64,000 nucleotides of DNA from Candidatus Omnitrophota bacterium (GTDB lineage Bacteria > Omnitrophota > Gorgyraeia > Gygaellales > Profunditerraquicolaceae). Where the stretch lies: NCBI GenBank assembly GCA_030693145.1, contig JAUYBI010000071.1, forward strand, positions 10,354 through 74,353, given 5' to 3'. Below the pieces are notes generated by a model, which had not been told where the DNA came from, ran no database searches, and saw nothing but the letters and a program-made list of their open reading frames with translations. The translations under genes and the position numbers were made by a program. Of this stretch, positions 6,378-35,600 are shown piece by piece (within the stretch, counting starts at the first letter, position 1; every line of letters begins with the position of its first letter).

Positions 6378-6379
6378 AT

Positions 6380-7261: not shown

Positions 7262-7321
7262 GCTAAATAGACTTTTTTAAATACACCTTTAAATTTTACT
7301 TGACTTTTTTAAATATCTACG

Positions 7322-7372
7322 AATACGACCCTGTTTCCCAGCCAATCGGGAAATAGGGTCGTATTTTTGTCG
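7322..7372 (+). terminator. intrinsic-terminator-like hairpin (repeat family D) after tadC
   Basis: aatacgaccctgtttccc-agccaatc-gggaaatagggtcgtatt forms an 18-bp stem, followed by TTTTTG. Half-copies occur at 811-830 and 8021-8047. Confidence 0.5.
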
Positions 7373-7456
7373 GTGCCCCTATTAAAATTGTCCAGTCTGT
7401 TTTTTAGTTAGATTTAATTGATTATTACGTCAATTATATTAGAAAGGAGAGCTTAA

Positions 7457-8388: not shown

Positions 8389-8668
8389 GAGTGTAAATAG
8401 AAAAGGTGCAAAAGGTAAACTTAGAGTAATCTAAGGACACAAAGCCACGGATCCTAAAATCAAGAAATAGTGTCAAGGACAGCCGGGTTGCCAGTACCGA
8501 CGAAAGTTGGAGCTGACAACTCATTTTTTATTTAAGAACTTAATAAAAAATTTTAAAAACGTTTTAGTAATCTGTAACCTTATGCAAAGAAGCTTCATTA
8601 AAAAAATGAAAAGTCTTGGGGTAAGGGGAAGTATTTATTTTTTATTTAATACTACAGGTAAGTAAAAA

Positions 8669-11600: not shown

Positions 11601-14600
11601 AGACAATCAACAGTTTAACCCAGTCAATTTCTTCGCGCATACCAGAAGTGCCTTTGCCAAAATTCTTTAGAGATACCAATGCAAGTTTTAACCTTGGCCA
11701 CGCCGGCCGCGTTGGAGAAATAGCCAGCCGTATTTGGCATGGAATAAAAGGGGGAACAAAAGATGCTTTTGGGGCGCCTTTTAGACTGCATAGGGTAGTA
11801 AAGTTTGATTCAGCCGCAACTGCGCGATGGTCTCAAGCTTCTAACTTAGGTAAAGCTGGAATATTAGCTCGGACAGTAGCTTGGGATGGTCCGGTTTTTC
11901 TGGGAAAATCTCTGGCAATTGAAGTTGTGCCGAGAGCGGGATTTTACCTTGGTACAGCAGGGACAATTGATGCCCTTTTCATTTTTAATGAGAATGAATT
12001 AAAGAAAGAAAATGCTTTTCATCCTCTTAGCCTTGAGAATCCTTTGGGATTAAGGGCAACCGGTTTAAATATGGGGCTAAGACTTAAAGCCGGCGGCTAT
12101 GCTGTTTTAGGAAATTTAGATAAGGCCAAACATACCAATGATTTAGCTGATACAGTGTCGCAAGTTTCAGCAGGGGGCTATTCTGGAGCTATAGCTTATC
12201 AGCTTACCTACCCTGACTATAAACCATTTCTGGCAGAGTCTATATTAAGAACAGGCCTTGCTATTCCTTTTCAAATAATAGCAACTATCGAAGGATTTGC
12301 CGGTTTTCCTTATCGTGTTGCTTTTACCGCACCTTATTATACGAGAAGTGGATGGAATACAGGAGGAGTTATAGGAGGTGTAAAAGGATTTGTTCAGGGA
12401 GGAATAGCTTCACCTGCCTGGGGTATGTTCGGCTTTATTACTTCTATACCTGAATCAGGTGTAAATGTAGTTGATAGTATAGCTGGTAGCGCAGCTAATG
12501 CAGTGGGAATAAAAGAAAAAATTTGGGGTCAACGTACGCCGGGAAAATTAGTTAAAAGTGGCGCTATTTTAAACTACCTCGCATCTGGTATTGAAAAATA
12601 CGATTCTTTTAAGGGGTTTAAGAATTTTGTTGAACCGGAAGGTCATGCTCTCATTCGGGATACAGAAGGTCAATATCTAGGAGCAGATTACTTTTTTGCT
12701 AATGTTTGGATGATGGGAGGCCTTAGGCAGAGCATGGGTTTAAAACGCCCAGAGGCAAAAGGTGCCTCATCCAAAGCTCGCTTGCCCGATACTGCGATTA
12801 TAACCGCTTACCAGAGAATGACAGGTGCCGTGCTTTCTCCGATGCATATAGTTACAGGCCCTGTATTCGGGTTTAGGAATTTAATCGTAGATAAGACTCT
12901 AGGAAAATCAAGTTTTTTGGTTACAAAAGGATGGGTTTCGCCCGCGCAGGACATAAGTATTCCTTCCAGAATAGATGGGTATTTTAAACAAATAGGCGCA
13001 GGATTAACTGGATGGACTCTTATTCCCCTTGATTTATCAAAGATAGTAGGAGCTGAGAAAAAAGTTCTTCCGCTATACCTCAAAGCAGCCAATAACAAAT
13101 ATATTTCCTATATTTATCCCAAAGCCCAGCTTATCTCCATGGTTTATTTCTTCCCAGAAGCGGTTAAAGATTATTCACAATTAAGGAATTTAGGAGCAAG
13201 GCCCGACCAAATTTTAAGAATGCGAGATAAGAAGGTACTAGGAGGTAAAGTGCAGGGTATTGAAATATCTCCGCAAATAAAAATAATTGCAAGCTCTGAA
13301 GAAAGGTTAGCTGCTCGTTTGAAGATAGAAGCCAAAGACACCATAGGGAGCGATTGGAGGTCAGTCAAAACTTTTTCTGACGCAGTTCTTATTCAGGAAG
13401 CTTCGAGAAACTTAGGAAGTGGGGATGTTTTGTCTCAACTCGCTAAGTTAGGGATTGGGATGCGGTCTTTTACTAGAGGTAATTCTCAAATATTAAGAGA
13501 TTACTTCACAAATATAGATACTAATACGCCTTCTCTTTCTGAAAGAATTAAAGCCCGCTATGAAATGGGCTTACCTTCAGAAAAATCTTTAGTAAATGAA
13601 TATTTGGCTTTTAAAGAGCAGGCAACAGAACAGGATATACAACATAAGATAGATGCAGGAAAGATAAAACAGGAAGATGCTGGCTGGATTAAACAACAAA
13701 AAATGCTTTACGCAAAATCTTGGGTAGATTCAGTAACTCCCAAAGATATAATGAATTTTGAGGATGAACTTTATAATTATTATAGAAACGATTACAAAAG
13801 AATAGATAAGAAAGGAAAGGGGCTTAGCGATTCTTTGTCTAAAAGTTTAGCCAAGAATTTTGTGTTACCTACAAAAAATAACCGTGAACTGGTAAATTCT
13901 TATCATACTGATTTCTCAGAAATTATTGCAGCAGAAAATAAAGTTCTAAAAGATATCAGATGGGATTTTCACAATAACAAGTTTAAACCTAAAAATCTTA
14001 AAGCAAAAGGAATAGCAGATCAGTTAAATAGCAATAATGAATTCCTTTCCTTATTTGCAGAACACATTGGGAATATAAAAAGTGAGCAAGGAAAGAAGTT
14101 TAGTGCAGGTAAATTAGATGCCCAGATATACAAGTCTTTAGAAACTATTAAACAACCCAATAAACTATTGGGTGCACCTACAGGTGCCGGGAAAAGTACT
14201 GTAATAATACCTGTTCCTTTAATGCTTCTGGCTACAAGGTCTATAAATTCTTTAGCACTTCATCCCGATTCTGAAAAAACTTTAAATGCCTTTAATGATT
14301 TTGCTAAATATCACAAAGCTCCAATCAATGAGAATAAACAAGCCGGATTTAAGTGGTTTAAAATTGGTAATAAAAAAGTACTCCTTTTAGATTTAAATGG
14401 TCAAGGGCACTATGGTATCCGGTTAGATTACACCGGCATTCGAGAATTACAAAAATACATTAGGGATGCAAATATTGTCTATACAGATGTGCACACTATG
14501 CAGTCCATAAGAATGAACTCTTTATTAGAAGGCAGGTTTGCAAAAAAAGAAGCATTTTCTTACGAAAAAATATACAATTATCTTTCTAAAGATCGTTGGT

Positions 14601-17600
14601 TATTTGGAGATGAAATTCATCAGATTGCACAATCGCCACATTTAATAATGGGGATAAAAGGAGAACCGATAAAAGCTGATTTTTTAAATAGGATTGGAAC
14701 AGAGTTTGATGGGTTTTCCGGATGGTTAAAGAAAAAAGCAGCGCTCAGTGGCGAAGTCAAGGATTATAAAGATTTTGGTAATTGGTTGATAAAAGAGCAT
14801 TTCATTAGAAAAGTTGGCAATCAAGGATATTTAGAGCAAAAACTTGTAAAAGAATTTATAGAATATAAAGAGAACAAAATTGACATAAATAAATTCCGCG
14901 ATATTGAGAATAAAGAATATAAAGATTATCGGCTAATGCTTAATGCTTTTGCAGATGCCTGGGGAATGGTTAAAGAACAACAAGGAGGATATGGTTGGTC
15001 AGGAGATAAACCTTTGGAATTAGAATTCAGAGGCAAGCCAGTGCCTATTCATGAAGGTAAGCTAGCTGCACAGATGTATTGGAGTTTAGAAAACATTGTT
15101 ATTGCGCGTTGGATTGCTGCAGCACGAATGGAAGGATTTAAGGGGAGTGTAGATAAAATTATGTTCAATGAGAAGGGGGAATCTCGTATAAGTGCAAGCC
15201 CCGAGTCCCTAAGAGTTACACCTATGAGTATAGTAAAAGATTTTAATTATAAATCTTTCCTTTCTGCTACTCCCGAGTGGGCAGGGCCTATTTCTCGGTT
15301 TATGGGCGTAGGGGTAGAAAGAAGGAATACGCTTATGAGTGAAATAAAGAATTACTTAAAGAGAGAAACGCCGAAAGATCAATTTCAGTATCAATTTAAA
15401 CTAGAACATGTAGGATATTTTAAAGATTTTAAGAAAGGATTAGAACAATTTAGCTATGACGGTCCAATTGTTATTAAGCCCGCCTTTACATACCACAAAG
15501 ATAAAATAGCAGAGATGGTTGTTGGTTATGCAGAACGTACAAATAAAGTCCTGTTTGTTATGAAGGACGGTGGTTTTGAAGTATACCGTAATGGTATTCG
15601 TGACAGTATGATAGTTGACAAAGAAACAGTGAAAAAAAAATTATCCGAAGGAGAAAATATAGCGGTTTTATTCGACCGCCCTAATTTAGTAGGGTATAAC
15701 TTAGATTTTGGGAATAAAGGGGACATCCCTGCAAGTCGGCTTAGTAAAGATCCTAAATATATTACTGTCATTGATTCGGATACTACTGCTACTGAGTTTA
15801 GGCATACATTGGGAAGAAACCGTGGAAAATTCACAGAAAATGTTTGGGTTCTTGATAGGGAAGGGAAGATAAATGATGTAGATAAATTGATAAAACAACT
15901 TGAGAAAAATGAAAATAAGGCATTGGTCGATGCTTTTTATCAAGCATTTAATAATGTTGCTCATCAAGGGATGATTTCCCGGTTTGACTTGCTAAGGAAA
16001 TTCTCATTGAATGATTTAGATTACAATATAGTAAAAGATTTTCAAACAGAATTTCAAAGTAGGAACAAGATGGATGACGATATCAGCCCGCGTAGTGATA
16101 TGGATTTGGCTACCGCTATCGATCGTTCAGCAAAGAAAGAAGCCAAAGATTTTGTAGAAGTAGCTCAAAAGTTTAAAGGTAAGCTCAATCCTGCGCAAAA
16201 AAATTATGTAGAAAACTGGATAAAAGAAACCGAAAAGATAAGTAAACAAGGAATAGAATTTAAGGGTAACGATGTGAATAGAGACGGAGAGAGGTTAGCC
16301 AGAGAGATTGGCTGGGCAAGATTGGATTTTAGCGAAGCTACAAAAGTTTTTAGCGAAACTTATAAACGTAAGGAACTCGCAGAAAAAAGAATATCCCTTA
16401 TGTCTTCTTTAGCTATTCCGCGAGAAATTAATTGGGTAGGAATAGCTAAAGAAGGAATGACGAAAGATAATTTCCAAAAAGGCCTTACAGCAGAGATAGA
16501 GAAAACAGGCCTTTCACATAAATACTCTGAAGGTTATAGCAAAGATTTAGTTTCTTCAATGCCCCAAGACGTATTTAAAGGCAGGTTCACATATTTAAAG
16601 AGTCCAGCCATTACTGCTGGAGGAATTGGGTTCTTAAATATACTTACACAGCTTTCTTCTTCAAATGAGGATGAGATAGAAAAAATTAAAAATATACTCC
16701 TAAGTCTATTTGATTTTAACAAGGCACAGGAGTTTGCTCTTAATTTAAGAGGAATTTCTACTGATTCTGCACTTTATCCATTTTATTTGGGATTCTTGGT
16801 TTCTTCGTTAAACATTCATAGTAGAGAAGAATTAAGTAGTGTCATAAAGACGAGAGAAGCTTATCTTAAAAATGTATTCAATGGGCTCCCAGATAATGGA
16901 ATAAAAAAATATTTAAGTGACCGAAATTTGATACATTTTGGAATTCCAACTTTTGACGGTTATTCTTTTATCAATAATTTCCGCTATTCGCAAAATATTG
17001 TTCGGAACAGAGGGTTAGAAGAAGCAACAGTTATAAGAAATTTTGCGTTTCCCAAAGCAGCTATTCAACAAAATAAAGGGTTTCATGAAGACACAAGTTT
17101 TGAAATTGCAAAACTTCTTCATAAATATGATATTACTTTACCCCAACTTTACGGTGTCGCTAAGTCAAGTATGGCCTTAGTGGTGCAAAGAAAGGTTACT
17201 CAGCTCCCCAAGTTAAAAACAGTTAGCAGGATACGCGAAGGTTTAGATTTTATGAATTGGTTAAAACAAGAAGTTGTTCCTGATACAGAACTTCATTCTT
17301 GGCTGTCTAAAAAAACAGAAATACTTAGTAAGGCGAATAATAAATTAGAAGATAAATTGAATAAGGTGTATGGACGAAGCGGCGCAGCTAGGTATTTATT
17401 AAGAGGTATAGATAATTATCGCATTAGGAAAGAAATTTATAACTATAATAAATTAACCACATCTACCGATTTGGAAAAATTAGAAGAACTAATTGGAATT
17501 GATTCTAAGGCCTCCGTTAGTATTTTTAATCCCAAATTGTCTTTTAAGGAAATTGAAGATTCCGTAGCAACCATAAAAGGCTTATCCTTGTTGGGGAATA

Positions 17601-20600
17601 AAGTGCCTTTGGGTAAAGTTACTCTTTCTGAAATATATCAGAATTACGATATCGCTAAGCTTAATGGATTATCGACGATTAAAAATATTCCTCAGATTGG
17701 ACTTTTAGCTGATTATGACTTTGATAATTTACCTATGGATATTTCGGATACTTTAGCGAAATCTGCGCCGATTATTTTACCCAAAACAATCACTCAGGGG
17801 ATAATTAATAATCTTGGGTTATCTGAAAATGAAGCTAAGTTAGTCTTAGGGGGAAGCAGGCCATTAATCGTAGTAAAAAATCAGGATAAATTTACTATTT
17901 TTGAAGCAGGCGGCATCAAAAGAGAAAACATAGATAACGCCGATTTATTTGATCTTGTAAAACCTATTACAACGAATGAATTTCTCAGCCAAGGCATGGA
18001 AAAGAAATTTGTTCAAACCTATACCGATTTAATACCAGAGGTGGAGTATAGAGAAGATTTAGGATATACAGAAAAAATGGGTAAAAAGTTATTTGATAAA
18101 GCGATTAAAGATATGCATTTGTCTGATATTTACAAATTCTATGCAGATACAAAGGATATTTCTACCCTAAAGACAGAAGAAGTGATTTTTAAACAATTTG
18201 GAAGAGAAATAAGAAGAAATTTTGGTTTCAATCCTGATATTTGGACAATAAAAATGGCATTAGATAAAAAACAAACAGGTTGCGTTACCGATACGCAATT
18301 TGCGGCTTTATTGGCAAATACAGTTAATATGCCCGTAGAGTATCAGAGAATAGAGGGCTTATCCAGGCCGCATTTCGTACCCATTATAAAATTTGCTGAC
18401 GGCAACAAAAAAATAGTAGATTTTACACCTTATTTAGATGAAACAAAAGTTTCATTTATCAGCAAGCCCATAGATATAGAAAATGATTTTGAAAGATTAT
18501 CCGGCAGTTTTAATCAATACCGGCTCAAATTAGGAATAGATACGGCAGATAGCTACTTAGATGCCCAAAGAGAGTTAAGAAATTTGCCTAATACCGGCCT
18601 TACTGCCGCTATCTATGGAAATATGGGAATGCATGATGATAATTTAAAACATTTATTTAAAGCTCTTGAATACGACCCCCAGTATCATCAAATTAAAGAT
18701 AAATTAGAAAGAGAAGGATTTATTATTCCTGTTGAATATAATGGTAACCAATATCTAATCGACAAAGAAATCGCTTCTAATGAAGTATTAAAGAAACAAC
18801 TTGCGCAGATTCCTTTACCTGAACGCAACATAATCTTAGACAAAAATAGCCTGATAGGAAATAACGGTAATAGTATTACAGAGGGTGTGGTGCGTAAAGG
18901 TGGAGTTCTTTACCTTAATTCAAAGATTTTAACTGATGATAATAAAGAAATTTTATTTCAAGCTTTAGAGTATGGTCTTAACGGAATAAATCCTGAGAAG
19001 GGCGTTGTCCATATTCTTAAAGCAGCCAAAGTTACTAAGCTGAAAGATAATGGCATTGGTTCCGGTGTTCCTTCTTTAGAAAGAATGTTTACATACTTTA
19101 AAGATAACGGTCACGGTCTCTCTGAAGAAGTAATTAACGATGCGGCGATATTTATCGGAGAAAAGCTAAAATCCGAGGAAATAGAAGCAATAATTAATGC
19201 TTGGCCAACTGACGGCGGCAAAGGGGTGGTGGATAGAAGCAGAGTAGAAGAAGCAGCTAAGTTTTTAGCTGGCCGGATTGCAGACTATGGATTAGGATTA
19301 CTGGCGCAACGGGCTGTAGAGGAAGCAATGGCCGATGCGAAAAAATTATTATATTCTGAGAATGAGATAAAGGAAGCGTTAGAATATTTGAATGCTCAAA
19401 AGGAAGCGGTTGAGAATATGTTTGTCTTGAATAATAAGCTTCGGGAGGAGTTTAATACTCTCGATCTAAAAGATTACGCTAAATTATTAGAACAACATAA
19501 GCAGCTGCAAAGAGAAGTTAATCCGGGGATGGAAAATATCATAAAAATCAAGATCGAAGCCGCGATATTAGATGAAATAATGAAACTTCTGGCGGCCCCA
19601 ATTGAGCAGGTTGCATTGATAGCCGGTAAAGCAGAGAATTCTGTTTTTTACGCAGATGAGCTTATAAAAGTTAGTACAACGCAGGCAAGGAATACAGGTT
19701 ATTCAATTTCAGGAAAAGAAGAGGATGCGCTTATTTCGCGCATTGTTGATTTGCGGAATGAAGAAAGAAATTATATTTTATTACATAACCATCCATTTGG
19801 CGTAGATGTGGAAAATTCAGGTTCGGATAAAGAGCAGATAGAAAATTTCGCGGCATTTATAAGCGTTATAGGAAACAATAAAGCGCCTCTATCTTGGCTT
19901 GCGGCTCAACGTTTGGATAAGGAAGGCAATTGGGAATACATTCCGTTTACTATAACAGATAATGGTAGGCCAATGCCGCTTGAAGCAGTAGAAAAGCGGT
20001 TTGGTAAGGCAATTAGCTATTATCCCGGATTGATTGAACATTTCACTAGTCATATTGTGGCTGGTAAATTAAGCAAATTGATAATAGATAAAGCTAATCA
20101 GCCGGCAGAAACGGATTCTGGCGAGCCTGTACGTGGGCAATCTCCAGCGCTTCCTCCTATTACACCAAACATACCTATGTCACCGTCTTTACGAGATGGC
20201 GGGGCGCAGCGGGTTCCGTTTGGCTTATTTAATAATAAAATAACTACCATATTGCCACAATTGGCGGCTCGGATTGGTGAACTTCCTGGTATTACTTTGA
20301 GCAAATGTTATGGCAGCGTTAATCCCAGGGGCCCGCCTGCTGGTTCCACGACTGACTCTTTAGTTGTAAATGTAAGTAGTGTAGCAAGTGTAGTAAGAAA
20401 CGCAGTTGGTTTAGTTGGAAAACTGTCAGGTGCCCAGAGTGTTGACTCCAGAAATGGAGCAAGAGGGCAGGATGCAGAAGGTGCGTCCAACAGTAATATA
20501 GGTAAGAGAAGTGGAGTAAGTTCAATAGGAACCAATGGTGAGGCAAAAGGTGCCGAAACCCGAGGTTCTATTCGTGCGTATGGCTTCCGCAATAAGATTA

Positions 20601-23600
20601 TTAATGATTTAAAGAAGTTAATCCTCATTCCTCAGTTCAAAAATCCGACAATTCCTGAATTAAATCAATTTATTAGCGCAATATTAAGGGATGGCTCTTG
20701 GCCTTCTGCGAGAGCAGAAGTTCTGGCCCCCAAGAGCACCCTTAATACAAATAATTATTCGCAGGATGGGGGATTATTCAAAAATGGCGATATTCTTAAA
20801 GAAATTAATGAATTAGTTAAAGTAATGGCTAAAGATATTGGTATAGAACGAATGAAAAAGGGAATCAATACTATAGAAGATACTATAGAAGACAAGTATT
20901 CCGAGCAGAATGAGGATATACAAACGATACTAACAGGAAAAGCAGTGGCGAAAATTATCGCAGATAAAGGGATTTTGTCTGTGGAGAATATTAATAAAGA
21001 AGGTTTAGAGATTGATGATGAATTTTGGGCTAAGTTGGAAACATATAAGAGGATATTGTCTGGGTTAAGTGATTCAGGATTGGACGCGGAGAAGAAAAAG
21101 GCTAAAGCTGGTGATAAGTTGGCTGGAAAGTTGGTTAGAATTATTGAAGGCATAAGAGGATTAACATATGAAGAAAAGATAGAGATAATAAAGGGAATGA
21201 TAAAAGATACACCATGGAAAGAAAGAATAAGAAAATTGATAAGTCTCTTGCCGTTAGAATTAAAAGAAGTTTTGATAAGAGAAGTGCCGGGTGAGGACAT
21301 GTCGAAGGTCGAGAGGGTTTTAGAGGAGCGTCCGTATAATGGGAATACTGAGCAAATATATAAAATTCTTGAAGAACTCAGAGAAGGACAGAAAAAAATT
21401 GTAGCGAAAGTAGATAGAAACGAAGCTAGGCTTGATGAAACTGAAGAGGCACTAGAAGATGTAAAACAAGAAGCAGGAGCAGCAAAACAAGAAGCAGTAA
21501 GAGTTAAAGAAGCAACTACGTTATTAGGTGCAGAGGTAGCTAAAACTAAGGCAATGGCGCTCGATGCACGTAGACATGCAGTAGGAACAGGGGATGATTG
21601 TTTGGTTGGCGCGGTTAAAGATCCAAATGTCAGAAGAGAAGCAGATAGAAATCTTCGCATAGAGGCTGGTGTTGATGAATTTGTTCCCTATGTGGTTAAG
21701 TATTTATATACTGGTATGAAGATAATCAGGCAAGATTATGATAAGTTTATTGAAAAATATAGGACTGAAGGGAACTGGAAGAAGGTAGAAACTTTAAAAC
21801 AGGAAAAATTGACCGTAGTGAAAGTAAGAGAAGAAAATAAAGCGATTGAATTGCTTTCAAAATATTCTGGAAGAATAAGCATAATAGTTCAAAAGTCTCA
21901 AGATCTACTGCATGTTTATCAGGTAACAGGTTATAACTCTGAGACTAGAATGATTTCATACTCTGAGGATAATGGAGAAGGCCATAATGTTGGATATGGA
22001 GAGATTGCTTTGGATGAAATCACTAAGATCTACGGCGAATATGTGTTTGTTTTAGAGGAAGGGGTAGTTAATGAGGCAGGATTAAAAGCAAATGTATTAA
22101 CTGAGAAAGAGCAGAAAGCAATTAAGAACGTTGGTGGAGCTGGTGTGGATGCCAACAACAATAACGGTAGCGTCACAAGCAACAGTGCAAGCAATAGCGT
22201 AAATAACAATACTGGTAATACAAATAGTAATAACAGCGATACTAATAGCAATGATAATACTAATAATGGCAATAGCAACAATGGCAACGGCAATACTGGC
22301 AATACAAATAACGGTAATGGTAACACTGGTAATACAAATAATGGCAAAGGTGGTAATGGCGCAGCAGGCAATGGGGTAGCTGGGGTTGCGGCGTCGCCTG
22401 CGGCTCCTCGCGGAGCAACCGGAACAGTAATAATAGGGAATGTGGAAGGTCTTTCTTCTGTTCTCAAAATAAGTAATGGCCTTAGCCCTCCGGAAGCTAT
22501 ATTCGTCGAACTTGCCAATACCTTCCGCAGTTTAGCTAACCAGTTAGAATCAAGATTGCTTCGCCCCTTCGGGGCTCGCAATGACACCCATAATACTAAT
22601 GACACTGCCGATCTTCGTAATGCAATAGATGTCCTTAATAATTCCGCCAGCGCCTCAGAGAATTTGTTTGGTTTGATGGATAAAGCAGTCCGCCGCGATG
22701 AGGACGATGTTATCACAGCTCTCCTTAAGAAACTCATGGGGGCGATTAAAACCCGCGGCCTCAAGGACCTGAATGGACGTTATTTCCGCGCCGCCCGCTT
22801 AATCGCGCACAGATACGGGCTTCCTTATTCTTCAATGGTCGAGCTTGCCGCCGCCTTTATGTTACTTAATGAAACAGATGATTTTATCCGAGCGCTAAAA
22901 GATGAGGCTGATGTGAGAGCTGAAGTATTAAAGGCTAAAGAAGGCGAGATTGCTTCGCTCACTGCGTTCGCTCGCAATGACGGGTTAGTGGTGACGAATA
23001 ATGCAGCAGCTTATGATTTATTGAATAATGTATTAGATATCTTGAATAATTCTGCAGCTAGATACGCATCAGACGGAGGGTTAGCAATAAATGCGATAAG
23101 GATTTGGCTTGAGGAGGTTCGGGCGGGCATAAGAAGCATAGTTGATATGGCGGCAAGCGTATTTAGGGTGATTAGCGGGTTCTTATTGCGAGTTGCGCAG
23201 CGTAGAGGTAATGACGCCTTACCGGATTCTAAGAGTTTGCCGGGCGAAAATAATAATGAAAACGCTTTCTTGCCGGCTCAAGATGGTAACTTAAAAAATA
23301 CTTTAGTTGAATTGGCAAGCCGCCTATTTGGTTCAGGCCGCGGATTAATCGCGGATTTACAAGGCGCAAAAGATGTTGATTCACAGAGAGTTGTGGATAC
23401 AAATAAACTTGTTTCAGCGATAATGGTTATAATCGGCACATCTTTGGTTATTATATCCCAGGCTCCTCCATTGGTTATGATTGCGTATTTAGTAATTGCA
23501 ATTAACCAATTAGCCACGGGAGGAGAAAATGTTAACGATTATAAAAATTCAAGAGATGAGAGAACAGATGGCGGAATTAGAAAACCAGTACCGCATTCGG

Positions 23601-26600
23601 CGTTTACAGGAATTCCGGCAGGCGGCAGCTTTGGAGATGCTGAATTTGAGAAGTATTTTAACAGAAAATCCGAACAATTAAGCCGTCTTTATATAGAATC
23701 AAATAATCCGGCCAAGCTTGGCGCACGCCTAGTGCGCGGCCAGTCTGCGCAGCTTGCAAATGCCCATCAAACCGACGGCGGCGCAAGAGAGCCTTTAGCA
23801 GGATTGGTAGAGGTTTTGAGAGTAAAAGATTTATTGGCTACAATTAAAGCCCGCGCGCAGAATGGAAAGAATCTTAATGGGCGTGTTTATGTTGGCGGTG
23901 TTTGTCGAGATAATATAGAACAAAGGCCACTACCGAAATTAAGATTACTGTTAAAGCAGCTAACAAAGTTCCTGACATTTTATCAATCTCCTTCCTTATC
24001 AGAATCTGGACGAATAAGCAAGCCCATTATTAACGAACCTAATAAACCTATAACAATTAAAACTTTAATTAGAATTGTAAGCTTAATAAAATCCGCTGCT
24101 ACTAATGCAGCAAGCAGAACTTTGGAAAAATCAAGTAAAGTTTGGGAAAGGGCTTTAAGTTTACTTTTAGAAAGAAACATCATCACAATCTTTCTATCAT
24201 ATATTAATAATTCTGTCAATACTATAAATTTTGGCACTAAAAAGAGACAGGGCCAGGAAACGGTTAAATACCAAGCCTGCGACGGCGGCGCATTTAGCAG
24301 GATGGGTTCATTCCCTGTAGGTTTACCATTTACAAGGTCCACAACGCTTCCCGTAGAACTACCTATTTCTTTACCGGTTTCTCAGGATGGTGGGAATAAT
24401 GTTAATTTAACTAAATTGGCAGCACAGGCATTCAGTTTAGATCATCGCGGTTTCATTGTTTCTGTAAGAAGAGTCTTAGGCGGTATTTCCAAATCTGAAG
24501 TAAAAGATGCTCAATCGCTACCGATAGCCCAGACAAACATTAAGAAGTCAATTTTCTCATTAGCTCCTCCGGTTAATGGCTTGATTTCGCGTTTGGTAAG
24601 CGTAATTAACCAATTAGCCACGGGAGGACAAAATGATAAGCATAGACAGAATTCAGGAGATGAGAGAGCAGATGGCAGAGCTGGAAAATCAGTACCGAAT
24701 CCGAAGATTGCAGGAATTCAGGACGGCGGCAGCAGTGGAAATGTTGAATTTAAGGAGTATTTTAACAGAAAACCCGAACAATTAACCAGCCGTCTTTATA
24801 TAGAATTAAAAAATCTAGCTAATCTTGACGCATACTCTGGGCTTAGTCCGCCTGCGCAGCTTGTAATTGCCTTAATAGCTGCAGTGGTATTTGGCCTTTC
24901 CGCTTTAACCCATCAAACCGTAATAAATTCCATATATTCCACTTTAAAATCCAGGGGACGGTTCTGTTTTTTACCATTAAGTTCAGAAAACAGAACCGTC
25001 CCCGTGTTTTTGATATTAACTTTAACCACTACTTCACAAAAAGGAGGTGAATCATGTCACCCATTAAGCTCGAAGGCATCAGGATCCACCACATCATTGA
25101 CTCCACAAAAGATTATTCAACTTTTGCTGCAGCTCGTGAACACGGTAGTAACAAGATTAGGATCTTCCTGGTTAAAGATTCAGGCTCTGTCTATGCGCAT
25201 ACTGGACAGGAAGACACATGGAAGGAGATTGTCGGATCGGTCGCCGCCTACATCAGGTATTCCATCAGCCAAGCCCGACAATATGTTCCCGTCTACAAAG
25301 TCAATACAGCCTACGCTACAAACTAAAGCCGGTTTCTACGCTGCAACAAAGAATATTGTGATTTCTATTATCGCGTTGTTCTTTGTTGCGGCGCAGCCGG
25401 CAGCTGCGGCGGAAGGCTCGAAATTATCAGAGATGGTTCTTTTTGGAGGGGCTATATTTTTAATAGCAGCAATAATATTCGGTTTATTCCTCGCGTTTTC
25501 GATAAAGATGGGTATTCAAAAAGCAGAAAAAGCTATTGAAGAATATGGGAATAATACCCGGAGGATCGAAGATAGTGTTATAGCTAACCAAGTGATTGAA
25601 GCTTCAGCGATACATATAGAATCTACAGCAACGTTAAAATCTCCTCCGAATGCGTTATGGGTTTTAGAAAAGCTAACTTATCTTGGATCCGGAATTATTA
25701 CTCTATATTTTCCGATCTTTGGATTCATTAGGTTATCCTCTTGGATGATTGGTATCGGATATGTTTTCCTTATAGTGGGCGGTATAATAATTATACATCA
25801 TCTTGGTATGATGAAGAATAAAGCTAAAGGCATGAAAGTAGCGGGAGAAAGAACTCCTGCACAGATAGTTACAAATAATGGCCTTTATAGATGGATTCGC
25901 CATCCGCTTTATTTAGGGCAAATGATATCAGTAATTGGGTTTGTTTTAGCCTACACTAATTTATTTGCTTTACCTTTAAATATAATTTGGTTCTATTTAG
26001 TGAATAAATTGGCTTCTGCGGAAGAGGATTATTTGGTTAGCGTGGCTCCTGGTTATGCGGGTTATAAGCAACGGACAGGTAAATATATATATATACCAGG
26101 GTTTTTAGCAAAAAATAACGATAGTGAAAAAGAAGCAGTAAATAGTGATAATCTGTTTGATGGAGGGACTCTTATCGCTTTGGAAGCGGTATTAAGCGTT
26201 ATAATAATAGATCAACTTCTAAAATATATTGCCACCAAACGTTTACTTCCGCATTCTGAATATATTGATAAGGGTTTGAACTCTGATGGTTCATATCGCA
26301 GTAGAGGAACGACCGAAATTTATTATAATGAAGAGGCAAAAATTAAACTAATTGGACGGCTTGCACTTGTTAATGTAAGGCATAGTTCTGGCTCAAAAAC
26401 AGATAATATCGCCGTTGTTAAAATTGGTATTCTTGCTTCTTTGTTTGTGTTGTACGGCGCCTATTTTTCTGGTAACACTGCCTTGACTGTAATTTTTGTT
26501 TTAGCTGCTGGGGGATTCTTCGCTACCATCGTTGATATAATTAAATCAAAGTTTAGAGGAGCAATAGATCCGTTTATGTATGGAGGTACCTTTAATAATG

Positions 26601-29600
26601 AGCGGAGATTCGTTTTCTTCAATTTCGCAGATATATGTGTACTTACAGGATTGTTTCGCGCAGATTCCGGGGACGCATTACTTAATTTAAAAGTTGGCTC
26701 ACGGCGCGACGGCGGCAGGGTTCAGGGGGTGTTTGCGGTTTTAGGTGTTGGCGCATTAGGTGTGTTTTTCTTAATTTCCAGCTTGAAAGATTTAATTCTG
26801 ACAGTTTCTGGCGTAAACGGCATTAGCTTGGTATGGGTGGCATTAAAGCTGTTAATGGGCAGCAGCCTTATTTTCTCCAGCTATTCGTTAAATTATCTTA
26901 GGTTAGAGGCGGCAAAAGTAAATGGGCTTGTAACAAAGGGGCCATACAGTTTCTCAAGAACTCCTGTTTACTTGGGGTATATTTTAGCCGGTACTGGTTT
27001 TGCGTTTAGTTTAATTCTCTCCGGGGAGTTATATTCAGTATATTTTGCGGCTAATTCCGCGGCTATAATATATTTATATTTGGGAGTTTATAATGAAGAG
27101 AAAACGCTCGCGAAACAATTTGGAGAAGAGTATAGAAATTATCAAAATTCCGTTCCGAGATGGTTTGCGTTTAAGTTATTTTGGAAGGTGATAGTAAAAA
27201 AAGCTGATATTGACAGCCACCGGTTAACACAAAAAGACGGCGGCGCAGGGGCGTCGATAATTGAAAAGTTGTTAAATGCAATTAAACCCCGCGCGGAGAA
27301 TCTTTATTTGATTGCTTCGAGGTGGGATAATCTTAAATCTATTTCTTCTACTTTCCGCTCTACTTTTATCAATCTTAAATCTATTTCTTCTACTTTCCGC
27401 TCTACTTTTATCAAGCGTAAACCTATTTCAGCAACTTTCTCCCACGTTCTGGCTATGGTAGTTTCAATTCCGTCAATTCTTCTATTAATTGATTTTAGCT
27501 CTTCGCCAAATACCCTAAACTGGCTTCTTAGATCTTCAATGAGCACCGCCACTTCTCCCGCGGTCATTGTGGTTTTATTTTTAGCATTCTTATCCATAGC
27601 AGTAATTATAAGCGACAGAGTGAATTCTGTCAAGAATAATAATTTTACCCTTGAAATTAAGCGCTCTTATGCGATTAATCCAGCCCGCGACGGCGGCACA
27701 GGGACGATGTTACAGAATAAAATTGCAGCTACAAATATGGAACCAGAGGTTAAGCTTATGTTAACACGCAGGGGTTTCTTGGAAATTGGCGCTGGTATTG
27801 TTGGCTTGGGATTAAATCCGGGAATAGGGGGCATTAAAGAATTAGCAAATAAGTTTGCTGGTTTATTGAAAGGCGAAGAAATAGTTGATTTAAATAATCT
27901 TTCTGTTGACAGAGAGGCGTTAAAGCAACACGTAACAAAATTGGCTAATATCGGTACAAGAGCAGCCTATTTTAGAAATACAACTAATATTAACAAGGCT
28001 AAAGATTATATTGTTGGTTGTTTAGAGAAACTGGGATTACAAAGAATACATAATCCAATAGGGAAAGGATATATTTTACAGCAGTTTACAATGCAAGAGA
28101 TTTATGTTTATCCTAGAGACGATTATCCTTATTTAGACTATGAGTTAAAGTCATTAAGAAATCAAGAAAACATATCGTCTGAACAAACATCAGATCAATT
28201 GCTTTCCGTAAAGATAATGTCGTCACTGAAAACATTGCTATCGTTTTTACAAATCCGAAAAGAGGATAAATCACTTTTTGAGCTAAATATGACCATGCTG
28301 AAAGAGGCTGGTATCAAAGTTCCTGGACCATATGGTCCGGTAAAAGTACTTAAGAATGATTTAATCGTTGAGGGCACAAATATTATTGTTAGAATACCCG
28401 GAAGTAAGAATCCTGATAAGAAAGTTATTCTGGGTGCTCATTATGATTGTTTCAAAGGTGTTGGCGCTAATGATAATGCAACCGGGGTTGCTTGTCTTTT
28501 GGAGGCAGCAAGGATTATTTCGAAGTTTAATTTTGACGATACAATAGAGATTATTTTCTTTACCGCAGAAGAGGACGATAGTTTAGGGAGCAGTTTTTAT
28601 TTAAAAGAATTATTTGAAGAAGAAAAGGCCAATATAAAAGGGGTATTTATTGTTGATATGATTGGTAATAATAAAGGAAAAGATGAGCCTGAAGGGGAGG
28701 AAGATCTTAATTTACTGTATGATAGATATAATCCGGAAATATCTAAAAAGCTAATTGAAGAGACTGTAGAAGCTATACAGAAACACGTTTCGGATTTTTC
28801 AGTAACGGCTAATGAAGATGAGGGTTATGATAGTGACGATGACCCATTCCAAAGTGAAAGAATACCTACGATATTGTTTAGCGAAGATACCGGTGAAGAG
28901 CTTACAACTCAGAATGAGTTTTTTAACGGGGCGCAAGACACAATAGAGCATATAGATTTTGAAGGGTTTTTCCCCAAAGCAGTAAAAGCGGTTATAGTTT
29001 CCGTTATCGTACAAAGTAACTCTAATAAAGACGGCGGCGTAATTGGTTCTGCTATTATATTACTGGTTCCTGGCATTTGGAACTCAATGTATATGCAGTT
29101 GATAGGGGTGAATAGGCCTGGCATAGACCGCATCCTGTATGAAACCGGCCCGCCGGAAATTAAGATTGGAGTTATCAAATATTTATTTAATAGATTTAGC
29201 CCTGGCTCAACCAGTGTTTCTCAGCCTACCGTGGCAGGTATTTCCTTTAAAGCCCGCGCGGAGAATCTTTATTTGATTGCTTCGAGGTGGGTTAGCCGTT
29301 TACTGAAATCTTCTTTGATAATTCGTACGTCTTCTTCTATCTTAGCAAGTTTACCGTTCATTCTGGTTAAATCGTCTTTTATCCCCGCTGTCCTTATATT
29401 TAGCGTAGTAATATCTTCCCTGCTCTTTGCCACCATACCCATTGTGCTGTCTAATTTGTCTCTAAGCGCATCTTGGCCTTCACCGAGAAGCTCAATCCCT
29501 GAATGGACCTTTTCGAGGATTACCGCAAATTCCCGATCTTTATCAAATTCTTTGAGTTTCTTTGTCTCTTTCTTCATGCTAAGCAATTCCGGGAACACAT

Positions 29601-32600
29601 TACTTAATTCCCAGCGCGGCGGCGGCGCAGTTTTTATTCTTTTCGGTGTTTATGATGCGTTAGACGGTCAATACAAAACCAAACACCAAAAATCAGCACA
29701 ATTAATAATAGGGTTACTACCGCAGTCATTTCTATTATTTAGTATGATGAGAGTGAAGATGGCGGGGAATCGTGAAAATCCCGATAAGAATAATAAAAAT
29801 CAAACCACCAATCAACATAAACAGCAAACCGTTCATAATTATTCAACTCCTTTATTAAGCATAGTGGCAATGATAAAGGCTGCCATAAAAAACATCAAAC
29901 CTACCATAAATACACTAAGACGAAATTCAATTCCTGAGACGAATTGTCCGATTACTAACGCCGCAAATACTAATTTACCTATATCGTACAAAGATTTAGA
30001 CAATTCCTTTCAATTCTTTCTTATAAAAGATTCTGGGATAAGCAGATCTATTAACAAAGCCAAGAAAGATTCAATGGCGGATAGGGTGATGTTTGCGGGG
30101 GGTAGTAAAGAAGATACCCAAAAGCGCAATAATTATTATTATCAGGAACGTGAAAATCAAGATCATTTATCCTCCGAATTTTTCAATAGCGTTAGAGCCC
30201 AAAACACCAATATCACAGTAACACCCATCCCTAATATGATAGTTAATAATTTAATAAAGAGTTTTTCCCCTGAGAATATGGGATTTAGTATTACAACAGC
30301 AATTAGTAATTTACTTACATCAAATAGAGTTTTTGCTAATTCTTTGGATTGGTTCTCATTTAGCCGCATAGTTAAATATATACTACTAGAAGAGATTGTT
30401 GTCAAGCCAAATTATTTTATAGTAGCAAACGATGGATCTGCGACCGACGGCGGCATACTTAGTTCTGCTATTGTATTAGCGGCTCCGGGTGTTTGGAACT
30501 CAATTTATATGCATTCGATAGAAGGGATCAGGACTGGCGTAGACCTTTTATTATATGAAACCAGTCCGCCGTATACTGTTATTCTTCCTGATGTTTTCCT
30601 CCCAATAGTTTTCGTCTTATTATTATCCGTAATAACAAATTCTAAACTAAATTCAGCAAGATTTAGCCCTGGCTCAACCAGTGTTTCTCAGCCTACCGTG
30701 GCAGGTTGGTTTGTGTTGGCCGGGGCTATTTTATTTGTTACCCAGCCGCTGCTTACCTTAGGGATACTTACCGTGGCAGGTATCTCCTTAATTGGTGCGG
30801 CTATTGTTGTATATGGGGGCTTCGCAGGCATTATTCCTGCCGGGGCCCCCATTGCAACAAGAAAGGGCAGCGTTCCCGCGGTTGCGGATGGGGGAAGAAA
30901 AGTAAATATTGATAAAGTTACGATGACAGGCGATTGGCGGAGCTCAATAGCTAGAGTAGAAGAAATACTTAAATTGGTGGAAGATGCTTGTTATCGCGTA
31001 ATTATGGTAAAACAAGGGAAAGTCGATGCTGATACGATAATAAAGATAAGAGAGAATTACAAGGGAAGAAAACGGGATACAGCTATAGATATGAAGCTGG
31101 GTAAGATAATAATAAATGATAATAGAGAAACATTGCGTATATATAATATTCTGAGTAAACAGCAAAAATTTGTGGATATTTTTAATATTTCTATTAAAGA
31201 AGATGTCCGCGGAGCGGCAGCTCAAACATTTGGAAACCTGGCAAAGGAATTAAATATTCCACTTGAAAAGATCTCAGAAGGGTTGATGGAAAAAGGTGTA
31301 AAATCAGGAGAGTTTGAAACAGCCTTTGTTTTGTTAGAAGAGGCAAAAGACAAAATATTTATCGCGGTACAGGAGATATTAAATATCGATATCAATGAAG
31401 AAGGAGTATATAGCATTGGAAATGAAGGTGATTTTATAGATGCCCAAGGCAGACGCATAGATTTATCTGACTATAAAGTTGTAAGCCATATTCATTATCA
31501 TCCCGGAAGAAAAGACGGATATCCTGTTCCGTCAGCGTTTGATTTGGGTTTATATACGCAGCTATTGTTTAGTAATAATGAATTTATAGGCATTGTTTTT
31601 GGCAACGATACTCAAGATAAGCTTATATCCAAGGCGTTTGTCTTAAAAGACGGCAGAGACCTGGGAAAGTTAAAGCTCGACATAGAGAATTTGCTAGAGG
31701 AGAGGCAACTCTTGGAAGAAAAAGGCGTAACGGAAGCTAACCGTAAAATATTTATTGGTATGTTTGAAATTTTTATCAATGAATATTTCCGCATAATTCA
31801 AACCGAAGATTTTAAGATAAACGAAAATTGCGGAAAAGAAGCCGACGGTGGAGAAATAATAGACCCAGGCACTTATGAAACGGCTCGGAAGATAAACTGG
31901 AATGAATGGTTTTTAAAATATGACGCGGTATTTTTCCTTAATATAGTGACGTTGTTTACCCCTAGGGATGCTAAGGCAATAAGCAAGACTATAGAAAAAC
32001 TTAAGGAATTAAGAAAAATTAATCCCGGTAAGTTTAAAACAGCGTTAGAAGAAAACAAAGATTATATAAGGGGTAAGATTCTTAACAATATGAGGAGTGT
32101 TGCCAAACAGGTAACACATACAGAAGAATGGCTTTTTGGTGACGTGGACGCATTATCATACGATAAATTGGATATGTTAATGGAAGTCTTTCCAGAAGCA
32201 TTTATAGAAGCAACAGAAGAAAGAACCAATAGCGAATTAGTTGGAAACTTTAAACTTGCGACTAAAGGTAAAGAGCTTATGCATAAGGCAACAAATTCTA
32301 TGGGGCAAAGACTATTGGAGCAAGAAAATAAAAATGTAAGATATTTATTGGCTACCTTATTCACAGAGGGCATGGATAAAAAAGAAGAGCTAGATAACAT
32401 TAGAGAAACAATAGCCGCTCTTAGTAGAGCGGATATAGAGGACAATATTTTTGTCTACTTATCTTTATTAATAAATACAAATGTAAATAAAGAGTTAGCC
32501 CCGAAGGTCGCCAGAGCAATAGAAGGTTTCTTAGCCGAGAGGGGGATAAAAGGTAATATTAATCCGGATAGTTTAGTAGCAGAATATAGCAAAATAATAG

Positions 32601-35600
32601 AAAATGGCCGAAGGATAAAGCATATCGCCATTAATTTAGAAGCTGTATTTGGGAAGGATGTTTTAATAATATGGGATAGTTTATATAATTCTTTACAGGG
32701 CAAGAGGCAGTTTCAGATAAGCCGGATAGTGGAAAGTATCAAATCGGGTGTGGGGAGCCTGAGCAAGAAAGGCGCGGTGAATGTTCTGGTTGCTTCCGGT
32801 GATATGTTAGGAGAACAAGGCCACAAACAGATTATCGAACCATTTAACAGGGCATATAATAGCGGCATAGATCTGGATAGTAGAATAAAAGAAGATTTTG
32901 GAGTAACGGAAATAAAAGGTGACAAGGTTATTATAATCCGCGCTGAAGAGAAGAATGTGTTGAATGGGGCGCCCGCCGTAGTGAATATAATAACAGACGG
33001 AGAAATGCCTGTTGGGATTATAGACGCGGTAGTAACCGGCCTGTACGAGCAAGGGGAAAAGAGTTTTATCAAAGGGTTTATGAATCTGTATGAAAACGGA
33101 GCAGAATTAGTATTGGGTTACAAAGTACTTGATATAAATGGCGTAAGGGTAAAATTGAAATACGATAACGAAGAGAAAAAAGAATACCCCGTAATTTACA
33201 TTACTATAAGTATGTACGACGTCGCTAAGATGTTAGAAACAATAGCCGGAAAAAACTGCGCTTTGGACGGCGGTAAGGATTCGCAAGATACGGGTTATCT
33301 ATTGAGTAAAAATGAGGTTCGCGCGGCTACTTTGGCTGGGGTGGGGTTAGTTGTTTTATCCTTTATTCTTTCAGCGTATGGTTTTGAAGATTTAGCAATT
33401 GCCAGCGGAGCGATTGGGTTTATGTTAACTGCTGTCGTAGCGATAACCTGGTTAGCCATTAAAATTAATCCTCAGATTAAAGAGGTTTATTTAGAGGCGC
33501 TGGAAAACGCTAATGAGCCGGTGGCCATATCAACCGTTTCCGGGGAGGAAGAAATTTCTAATACAGTTTTACCAATGGAAACAGAAATGAGAATAGAAGG
33601 GGATATTATTCATCACAATTTCTCTCCCAGCCGGATCGGTGAAAATAAAGCAAACGGGTTAATCACTAAAACAGTTGCAGCAATTGATAAGGTTAACAGC
33701 GCCGCAGGCGTTAATTCTGCATATATGAGCCGCTTAGATATGTTAGCCGGATTATGCCTTTCTAACGGAATTATCGGAGTTTGGTATTTTATTAAATATT
33801 GGAATGCGTATGGAATGGACCCGACCAAGACCTGCGAACAGTTGCTTTTGGGTAAGCAGGTATATGGTTATCCTCACCCGCGGCAAGTCGATATCTGGCT
33901 GGCTTGGAAAGATAACGCGCCCCTGGGTTATGCCGTAGCGTTAGGGCCAGATAAATACCGCCATATAGCTTATGTAGCGGTTGTTCCTGCAATGAGAAAG
34001 CAGGGAGTTGGGCTTAATTTAATGAAAGAGTTTTTTGAATATGCCAGGAGCCAGGGAATCGCAGAGTCATCTTTACATGTTAACGCAGATAATCTAGGGG
34101 CCTTGGGATTATATAGGAAAGCAGGTAGGTTTGCGGATAAAGTAGTAGAAATGGTAAAGGAAACCCCGTCCGGCATTGCTCAAATAAGAATGGAATTTTC
34201 TATTAATCGCGGGAAGGGAGACAACAAGCAGGCTGACGGCGGTTTGCTTAGGGCTGGGCCGGTGTTTAGTGAACGTGCTTGTGGCGATATTGATCGATCC
34301 CCAGCCAAACTAGGATTACGAGAATTATGGCGCTTAGGGTTAAAAGGGCGGTCATATCAATCTTCCTCCAAATTTCCTTTTGGGCAGACAAAAATTGCTC
34401 CTACCACTGAAAGAATCGTTGTTAATATAAAAGCAGTTTTCCACGGCATCGCTGCTTTAAGGAAGGCTTCTGAAATAAATAAAGCAATTACTAATGCCTG
34501 GAATAAATTTATTAAAGCTTTTGCAATTAACCGTCTGCGCGAATCTGTCCAAAATACATCTTCTTTCATTGAAAAAATACTACCATATCTTATTAGAGTT
34601 GTCAATAGCAATAACTTTAGAGATTCTTCGTCGCTGACGCTCTTCAGAATGACGAGGAGAGTAATTGAATTTGACGGCGGCAGAACGATAGTAGATTTTC
34701 TAAAGAAAGTTCCGTTAAAAGTTTGGCTTTTGATTCTCGCGGCTGTTTCACTTTTATTATTCAACGTACCTACGGTAACCGGTGCTTTGGCTGTTCCGGT
34801 TCTGGTGGTGGTGGGGATAACAATTTCCGGGACAACAATCGCGATTTTGGTACTTATAGTAATTATAGGAGTGTTGGCTGTTAAGAAATCTTGGCCTGTC
34901 ATAGCTCACCTTGCGGGTTTTGCTGGGGTATTGTTTGGCGTTTCGAAGTTACCGTTAATATACGCAGCAGCAAGTAATTTTGGTATGTTAGGCGCGTTAG
35001 GGTCATTTGTTGTTTCTACAGGAATAATCGTTGGCGCGATGTTCTTCTTCTTCGCGCTTATTGTAGATTATAAGAAATACGGGAAAGCAGAATTACATTA
35101 TACAGGTAAAGGCATTACTTCTTCCTTAGAAGACTATCAGATGCTTGCTTTGCAGGATATCGCGAAAGAGTATTCAAAAGAGTACTCAAAAAATAGTTTC
35201 AGCACAAAGAAGCTTTATTCGTTATATAAAAATAATCCCCGTTATCTAATAGCTGCGTTTGCGGCTGGTTTTATTATCGCGGCTGGTTTTATATTATTTA
35301 TTCCTACAGTTTTTATTGCAGCTACTATCTTAGAATCGTTGGCGTTAGGCGTATTGTTCCCTTATCTTGCGCATGTATTTCTGGATTTCTTTGGTAAATA
35401 TTCATTCGAGAATTTACATAATGTTGAAAATTTACAAAAGATTAAAGATTCTAAGGAGTTTGAAGAACGAGCTAAAAAATATAAAGGCGAGCTTGAGCGG
35501 GTGCGCAATCCCGAGACAAGGGAAAAAGAAGGAACTACGGATTATAGTGTGTTTATCTACGAATCAAGGATTATTCGCGCTAAGTTAGCCTTTCGCTTCC

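Follow-up and report, generated by a model that had tools for sequence, protein, structure and literature searches.

Nested out-of-frame genes are known from bacteria, for example comS within srfA-B of Bacillus subtilis, GndA within gnd of Escherichia coli, and rpmH. Homologs of such genes keep their Shine-Dalgarno sequence (SD), start codon and stop codon across species (PMC11230408). In the case of comS and GndA, the host frame is old and constrained, and the nested open reading frame (ORF) is short (36–46 amino acids) and narrowly distributed. The giant genes of Omnitrophota form a second point of comparison. West-Roberts et al. 2023 (bioRxiv 10.1101/2023.11.21.568195) ask whether a giant gene yields one transcript and one protein, and both this paper and a 2026 preprint (10.64898/2026.06.07.730766) leave the question of processing open. 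Here we describe a stretch of 64,000 nucleotides (hereafter, the window) of the Candidatus Omnitrophota contig JAUYBI010000071.1, in which two small genes, named ORF50 and ORF90, lie inside a giant ORF. In the reading that we consider probable, they form a conserved nested cassette, the giant frame crosses them as a bridge that selection has kept free of stop codons, and two RNA hairpins bracket a sub-message containing ORF90.

The host of these genes is an ORF in frame 1 of the window, which contains no stop codon from position 8666 to the window end (64000), i.e. over at least 18,445 codons, compared with more than 1,600 stops in each of the other plus-strand frames. Its likely start is the ATG at 8669 (giant ORF, 8669..64000, plus strand, continuing past the window end). 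A hydrophobic, transmembrane-like segment is visible in the translated N-terminus and is followed by a Pfam Peptidase_C39 domain (E 6.6e-9; 36.1 bits against a cut-off of 22). By its length (more than 10,000 codons), its C39 domain and the transmembrane segment at its N-terminus, this is a C39-type giant gene of Omnitrophota.

ORF90 (25054–25326, plus strand) encodes 90 amino acids, from an ATG to a TAA, in frame 0, which is the −1 frame relative to the giant ORF. Its SD, AGGAGGTG (25042..25049, plus strand; read as Gly-Gly in the giant frame), is part of the sequence AAAGGAGGTGA (25040–25050), located 36 nt past the stem of an upstream hairpin (24954–25003). An earlier annotation of this DNA, made from the letters alone (the first-pass annotation), had described a 90-codon ORF in another frame with an SD about 35 nt past the hairpin, and both were recovered in our analysis; the five nucleotides that it placed between the SD and the ATG are in fact three (ATC, followed by the ATG at 25054).

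A database search returned 14 close homologs of ORF90 (86–91 amino acids, 58–96% identical), aligned from the first to the last residue. A profile search of 1.84 billion representatives gave 90 matches, approx. 80 of them full-length (77–109 amino acids); these relatives are representative clusters at 50% identity. We inspected 22 ORF90 loci (the window and the loci designated L001–L013 and L141–L148), and in all of them the ORF was preceded by GGAGG(T), 4–6 nt and ATG, and ended with TAA. Eleven genome loci belong to Candidatus Omnitrophota metagenome-assembled genomes or genomes of that kind, some of which are labelled "uncultured Planctomycetales". Wherever a source was named, the loci came from Omnitrophota. 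An exact-sequence look-up of ORF90 found no record.

The pattern of substitutions follows the ORF90 frame. Across 14 loci, nucleotide diversity at the three ORF90 codon positions was 0.285, 0.197 and 0.541, and amino acid identity, which was 60% when the ORF was read in its own frame, dropped to 37% for the giant frame and to 35% for the third one. Between the window and L003, its closest relative among the genomes, the substitutions within ORF90 fall on position 2 of the giant codons, which is position 3 of the ORF90 codons. When supplied with the family alignment, AlphaFold2 returned a compact fold of a beta sheet plus helix (pLDDT 83, pTM 0.75), and the ORF90 product is predicted to be a globular alpha/beta protein. 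The suggestion of the first-pass annotation that the SD and the ORF constitute an internal translation unit thus finds strong comparative support in the conserved start, stop and SD, the third-position substitutions and the confidently predicted fold. We consider it very probable that ORF90 is an independently initiated nested gene.

ORF50 (24633–24785, plus strand, ATG..TAA) encodes 50 amino acids, predicted to be helical, in the +1 frame relative to the giant ORF. It is preceded by the SD GGGAGGA (24622..24628, plus strand), and a GGAGG-type motif was found 4–5 nt before the ATG in 10 out of 10 copies examined. The window carries a paralogous copy at 23529–23681, and copies with an ATG start and a TAA stop are located 230–450 nt upstream of ORF90 in L001, L003–L007, L010 and L011. 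Diversity at the ORF50 codon positions was 0.34, 0.23 and 0.54; amino acid identity was 57% in its own frame and 33%, i.e. noise level, in the giant frame, and the phase of the window–L003 substitutions agrees with the ORF50 frame. Judged by these substitution patterns, both ORF90 and ORF50 are shown to be genuine protein-coding genes, under purifying selection in their own frames. They probably constitute a conserved two-gene cassette on the same strand as the giant gene and out of frame with it. In a scan of the plus strand of the giant ORF for alternative-frame ORFs with a strong SD and a protein-like sequence, only ORF50 (two copies) and ORF90 were found.

The spacer between ORF50 and the ORF90 hairpin (24786..24953, plus strand) is read by the giant frame as a transmembrane-like, weakly conserved sequence (..SPPAQL..FGLSAL..). 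The giant-frame motifs VRAPPAQ, FGL and ITLTLP recur among the loci across this spacer, and the codon-position signal is weak (0.38/0.40/0.48).

Relative to ORF90 the giant frame is the +1 frame, and it is free of stops across ORF90 in 21 of the 22 loci, including family members detected by the profile search at E = 3e-5 and loci with as little as approx. 30–45% ORF90 protein identity. In most of the genome loci this frame is open over the entire 12–20 kb that were fetched. Synonymous resampling of the ORF90 proteins, performed with the codon usage of the window itself, gave a probability of a stop-free +1 frame of 0.0002–0.012 per locus. The +2 frame relative to ORF90 contains 4–14 stops. Per 91 codons, the ordinary genes of the window have on average 7 stops in their +1 frame, and none of 103 segments of these genes was stop-free. 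By comparison across loci, these results show that the giant frame over ORF90 and ORF50, which lacks stops in essentially every relative, is kept open by selection, far beyond chance. Selection for an open frame in turn implies translation through it, and we regard it as likely that the giant frame is translated across ORF90.

This is not true dual coding. The identity of the giant-frame peptide over ORF90 (37%) is close to that of the unused frame (35%), and the absence of stops alone is selected. On these values, the role of the giant frame is that of a stop-free bridge over ORF90, rather than that of another functional layer of coding.

The hairpin upstream of ORF90 (24954–25003, plus strand) begins 169 nt behind the ORF50 stop. 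Its left arm, GGGGACGGTTCTGTTTT (24954–24970), and its right arm (24987–25003) are exact reverse complements, which form 17 pairs around a loop of 16 nt; the first-pass annotation had correctly reported inverted arms followed by a T run, with one perfect pair too many (18). RNAfold adds wobble and inner pairs to this stem, and the extended palindrome spans 24946–25011. The sequence GTGTTTTTG (25004–25012) follows directly 3′ of the stem. The fold of region 24940–25060 has a free energy of −39.3 kcal/mol (z = −5.4), and none of 200 shuffled sequences was equally stable. The giant frame passes straight through the hairpin, as had been proposed, and reads ...KSRGRFCFLPLSSENRTVPVF... across it. 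A comparison with Rfam gave no family match for the hairpin region, merely sub-threshold models of miRNA precursors.

Four occurrences of the 17-mer arm, belonging to two hairpins, were counted in the window, compared with 0.06 expected. The second copy of the palindrome, with identical arms (9566–9618, plus strand; −39.3 kcal/mol, z = −8.7), is located in the C39 coding region (Pfam match), where the giant ORF reads it in a different frame, as GDGSVFLTPNSGKTEPSP; this copy has the appearance of an insertion in frame, comparable to those of the Rickettsia palindromic elements (RPEs). A degenerate copy is present at approx. 701. In L003 the orthologous copy has two C-to-T changes, by which G-C pairs become G-U and pairing is retained, and among the ORF90 loci only the window and L003 carry this palindrome.

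In a GGGGACGRTTCTRTTTT metagenome scan the arm was found in at least 120 contigs. The following figures apply to the matches listed. The 140 sites comprised 59 inverted pairs (loops of 4–105 nt) and 81 single arms. Of 48 paired copies, 46 were intergenic, at a median distance of 17 nt from gene 3′ ends versus 70 nt from 5′ ends; one group of the paired copies lies 2–8 nt from the 3′ end of a gene, AAAA...TTT(A)TTT flanks are typical, and few copies are located between divergent genes. Open frames of 600 nt or more contained only 16% of the 140 sites, compared with 62% of random positions, and up to four copies were present per 9–12 kb. One contig (L097) carries four copies in 11.6 kb and encodes a RecA 95% identical to Omnitrophota RecA. 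This distribution shows the window hairpin to be, in sequence terms, a copy of a dispersed palindromic repeat of Omnitrophota, which elsewhere is normally placed just behind stop codons.

In L016, L097, L102 and L118 some copies contain a second palindrome (GGTGACAGTCAC...GTGACAGTCACC) nested in the loop, so these repeats insert into one another. We also observed that the hairpin behind the ORF90 stop of L009 (approx. 10275–10305; CAGGGACGGUUCAGUCAGAGAGCCGUCCCU) has a GGGACGGUUC/CCGUCCC core in common with the dispersed palindrome.

Hairpins at this position are not limited to the repeat. We folded the region from −110 to +25 around the ORF90 start in 20 loci (all except L147 and L148), and a strong hairpin ending 15–60 nt before the SD was present in each of them, with the single exception of L143. 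Their sequences are clade-specific: the stem is the dispersed palindrome in the window and L003 and unrelated to it in the others. In group A (L001, L002, L004–L007 and L142, with L141 similar) a GCCG...CGGC stem is followed by UAUUUU(U). In this group 94.7% of cells are paired, versus 38–68% with slid partners, four pairs are altered on both sides, and the covariation score (0.271, versus 0.193 in shuffles) was reached in 0 of 500 shuffles. The stem of group B (L009–L013) is longer and lacks a U tract, and five of its pairs are altered on both sides.

A second hairpin (25328–25401, plus strand) begins 2 nt after the ORF90 stop and has no T tract. The fold of region 25320–25420 has a free energy of −47.2 kcal/mol (z = −5.5), and the giant frame reads the hairpin as a signal-peptide-like helix. 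Its homologs in L002 and L006, which represent another clade, differ by four pairs altered on both sides and four wobble-compatible one-sided changes; the compensatory changes also alter the giant-frame residues encoded there. Other hairpins occupy the same spot behind the ORF90 stop in L001, L008, L009 and L012. Taken together, the folding comparisons show that hairpins are conserved in position both before and behind ORF90.

The SD of ORF90 may itself be subject to local pairing. In the minimum-free-energy structures of the window a weak helix, UACUUC/GAGGUG (25030..25049, plus strand), can mask it; the SD has a mean probability of being unpaired of 0.30 in the window, with values from 0.00 to 0.65 among the loci. 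In the group A loci, GGAGGU can be paired by ACCUU, an invariant sequence located at the 5′ foot of their hairpin.

Beside the features that it described, the first-pass annotation made no mention of ORF50, the second copy of the palindrome, the hairpin behind the ORF90 stop, or a giant frame held open by selection without amino acid constraint.

These observations can be assembled into the following model. The giant mRNA would be transcribed through both hairpins, and ribosomes translating the giant frame would melt them. Passage of the giant transcript is assumed because otherwise the domain-encoding frame of 39 kb downstream, and everything after 9618, would be lost. ORF90 would be translated by independent initiation at its own SD, with either the giant mRNA or a processed fragment of that mRNA as the template. 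The hairpins on either side would serve to protect or process an ORF90 sub-message at its 5′ and 3′ ends, possibly also act as a pause site or a partial attenuator, and in this way would uncouple the level of ORF90 from that of the giant protein. The bridge peptide of approx. 100 residues would be a tolerated linker. The role of the hairpins as stabilizers is the most tentative part of the model, and we place it somewhat below even chances.

Several points weigh against this model. Independent initiation, read-through of the hairpins and processing are all inferred. The upstream hairpin is dispensable, being absent from L143, a close relative, and its presence in the window could reflect a neutral insertion. 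The covariation tests comprise just 3–7 related sequences, and the helices between the anti-SD and the SD are invariant on both sides. One locus, L141, has a TAA (L141 position 724) in the giant-equivalent frame within ORF90; this contig has 2x coverage, and the stop may represent a sequencing error or a lineage with a broken giant frame. On short contigs the +1 frame is open over merely 0.5–5 kb, without a proven giant gene. Finally, ORF90 has no match in Pfam, NCBIfam, PDB or BFVD, and these searches placed it in no family or known fold and pointed to no function.

The best surviving alternative concerns the hairpin itself, which in this lineage may be a selfish or neutral mobile palindrome of the RPE type, tolerated as it is stop-free in the giant frame and with no role for ORF90. 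Its membership in a dispersed family, the second copy that interrupts the C39 coding region, the resemblance of L143 to the window without the insertion, and the restriction of the palindrome to two of the ORF90 loci all fit this explanation. Against it, 15 of the 17 ORF90 loci folded besides the window and L003 bear a different strong hairpin at that position (with covariation tested in groups A and B), both arm differences between the window and L003 preserve pairing as G-U, and a conserved hairpin is present behind ORF90 as well. We treat neutral insertion as a serious alternative for the window hairpin, albeit an unlikely one.

Considerably less probable is the explanation raised in the first-pass annotation, namely that the hairpin and T run form an efficient intrinsic terminator before ORF90, in which case the giant mRNA would need dedicated antitermination. 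The resemblance to a terminator is real at the level of the repeat family, whose members (among the matches listed) have A and T tracts on their flanks and follow gene 3′ ends at a median distance of 17 nt, many of them 2–8 nt behind stop codons. The stem is stable and G+C-rich (17 perfect pairs with a GGGGACGG/CCGTCCCC base), the group A hairpins are followed by UAUUUU(U), and the window copy by the above-mentioned GTGTTTTTG. However, the loop has 16 nt, a GTG spacer precedes a run of just five T, and a simple scan for the terminator consensus did not call the hairpin because the loop exceeds 8 nt. The site is not the end of a transcription unit: it is embedded in a stop-free ORF whose coding sequence, domains included, continues for at least 39 kb beyond it, and an identical hairpin is located 900 nt into the same giant ORF. 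Moreover, the group B hairpins lack a U tract and L143 lacks the hairpin. It is well known from attenuation that a ribosome close behind the polymerase stops a terminator hairpin from forming, and a ribosome trailing the polymerase in the giant frame would block this one in the same way. An obligatory terminator finds no support in these data; partial or conditional termination at the hairpin may nevertheless occur.

A further possibility is that ORF90 is reached from the giant frame by programmed −1 frameshifting, which would yield a shortened giant protein with the ORF90 domain at its end. Internal SD-like sequences and hairpins stimulate frameshifting in dnaX and prfB; ORF90 is in the −1 frame, and an internal SD-like sequence and nearby hairpins are signals of these types. 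Nevertheless, we consider this explanation very improbable. A TGA in the ORF90 frame 3 nt before the ATG of the window leaves only two codons for a shift, no slippery heptamer is conserved, the ATG and optimal SD spacing are invariant in the 22 loci, and the hairpin is located upstream, not downstream, of any possible shift site. A candidate frameshift signal around CUUUAAC was also rejected, as its UAA is in the ORF50 frame, remote from any relevant junction.

Equally improbable, and already strongly disfavoured, is the view that the giant frame is untranslated here, ORF50 and ORF90 being ordinary small genes between large ones and the open frame a product of chance or of faulty assembly. In its favour, the small ORFs were the only ones predicted by gene callers on several contigs, L141 has its giant-frame stop and the open frame of L005 is just 5.5 kb. 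Against it stand the absence of a +1 stop in 21 of 22 independent assemblies, the resampling probabilities, the stop frequency in ordinary genes and the frame open across the whole 12–20 kb of most genome loci.

The model of a nested cassette crossed by a stop-free bridge can be extended, although we are inclined to doubt the extension. ORF90 together with ORF50 might be an obligately nested family, apparently found only inside Omnitrophota giant ORFs, for which the giant frame serves as a translated conduit, and the giant genes might in part be operon-like clusters welded together by the loss of stop codons. If this were true, stops would have been purged so that the ribosome could travel the whole transcript of at least 55 kb and thereby suppress intragenic termination and decay, the genes in other frames would keep their own start signals and hairpin-bounded sub-messages, and junk bridges would possibly be trimmed by the N-terminal C39 protease.

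The region of the giant ORF that surrounds the cassette is heterogeneous. The part from 20 to 31 kb is a mosaic: a segment of approx. 5.3 kb directly after ORF90 (25330–30645), which holds domain modules and antisense genes, is missing from L003 (L003 10265–10448). Judging from this comparison, the mosaic is cassette-like. Internal duplications were also observed in the window (23478–23764 with 24582–24871, and 29030–29239 with 30446–30706, the latter including a 48-nt perfect repeat).

The tripeptide DGG is overrepresented in the giant frame (22 observed versus 4.8 expected), with 20 occurrences between 19.2 and 34.7 kb (range 19211–34673) and a further one at 58643. The DGG codons vary synonymously, and many are placed at the boundaries of modules (LspA-like, ICMT-like, M28, GNAT). 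It may be conjectured from this placement that they are double-glycine cleavage sites of the N-terminal C39 protease. DGG is also enriched in L003 (8 versus 1.6 expected) and not in the other relatives; the enrichment is hence lineage-specific, and we rejected DGG as a general cleavage motif. Two related candidates were likewise discarded: a Gly-Gly within ORF50 selected in the giant frame, as it is unconserved across loci, and the Gly-Gly read from the SDs, taken as a conserved cleavage site, since it is absent for ORF50 in L005 and L007 and appears to be a by-product.

Two paralogous coiled-coil genes of approx. 100 codons are located in antisense orientation within the giant ORF (27304–27633 and 29269–29598, both minus strand). 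The first is accompanied by a perfect TTGACA-17-TATAAT promoter (27633..27605), with an ATG at approx. 27597, and from this spacing its mRNA may be leaderless. The second (29269–29577, minus strand) belongs to a family of approx. 102 amino acids with 22 homologs, which are free-standing in ordinary contexts (L134–L139). We had considered this gene as a further proof of selection for an open giant frame, and found it uninformative: even the free-standing homologs have just 0–1 stops in that antisense register, so the passage of the giant frame through these antisense genes does not in itself testify to selection. Two smaller antisense ORFs with transmembrane-like sequence (23983–24342 and 29839–30003, both minus strand) could, from their sequence, be further embedded genes.

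Further Pfam domains encoded in the giant frame are ICMT/PEMT, Peptidase_A8, M28 and GNAT. A Walker-A-like GAPTGAGKST is present at approx. 14.1 kb of the giant frame; a Pfam search of 13901–16399, in which a SecA DEAD-like helicase was sought, gave nothing at E <= 1e-3. A PDB sequence search of the C39 region returned no usable match.

Upstream of the giant gene, Pfam identified two genes for protein F of the type II secretion system (T2SS; 5532–7258, plus strand). An ORF6N/Rha-like gene (phage antirepressor-type) lies with them within 5532–7969 (plus strand), just 5′ of a riboswitch and the giant gene. The riboswitch is a full-length match to the cyclic di-GMP aptamer c-di-GMP-I-GGC (RF03167; 8405–8496, plus strand; 61.1 bits versus a gathering score of 59), approx. 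170 nt upstream of the giant ORF start, and is followed at approx. 8504–8535 by a small stem and ATTTTTTATTT. Given this arrangement, the giant gene may be under cyclic di-GMP control.

In its size of at least 18,445 codons, its transmembrane and C39 N-terminus and its many transmembrane segments, the host ORF resembles the Omnitrophota giant genes described to date (10.1101/2023.11.21.568195; 10.64898/2026.06.07.730766), as it does in the patchwork of enzyme domains (signal peptidase II, methyltransferase, GNAT) and the neighbouring T2SS genes. Term searches of both papers, together with section 8 of the 2026 preprint, gave no mention of genes nested in another frame or of internal SDs, hairpins or bridge segments, and a literature search on Omnitrophota combined with overlapping or nested genes found nothing relevant. 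As to what follows, the ORF90/ORF50 locus offers a built-in test of whether giant genes yield one transcript and one protein, it implies that ribosomes truly traverse these giant frames, and it indicates that current annotations of Omnitrophota miss a whole protein family.

The dispersed palindrome is comparable with repetitive extragenic palindromic (REP) sequences and with the pneumococcal SPRITE, a rho-independent terminator-like element; both are likewise short palindromes in many copies, mostly just behind genes and with terminator-like tracts. In its occasional in-frame copies inside coding sequence it is like the RPEs (PMC10969869), which are approx. 150 bp long, compared with approx. 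50 nt here. Unlike all of these, the window palindrome has an unrelated sequence, and about half of its sites (among the matches listed) have one recognizable arm.

With regard to the hairpins as a pair, hairpin-bounded stable segments occur in polycistronic mRNAs, as exemplified by the REP after malE and by the puf and pap operons, and in phage MS2 a ribosome-binding site is unmasked by upstream translation. As in the malE, puf and pap segments, strong stem-loops are found here directly before and behind a small cistron in a much longer transcript; in contrast to those segments, both hairpins lie inside a frame that is probably translated. As in MS2, a pyrimidine-rich upstream anti-SD can pair with the SD, in this case through a helix without covariation.

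The closest counterparts of the nested genes remain comS and GndA, which are also complete small ORFs with their own ribosome-binding sites inside a longer ORF in another frame, the host of comS being a very large multi-module gene. At this locus, two nested genes stand side by side in the two alternative frames. As far as the consulted parts of the literature extend, the combination of old, constrained nested genes, a merely stop-free host frame and RNA hairpins around a nested gene is new and previously undescribed. Unlike in comS and GndA, it is the nested genes that are constrained and deeply conserved (90 amino acids, a predicted folded domain and approx. 80 clusters at 50% identity) and the host that is merely free of stops, which reverses the usual picture of gene overlap, that of an old, constrained host and a young nested ORF.

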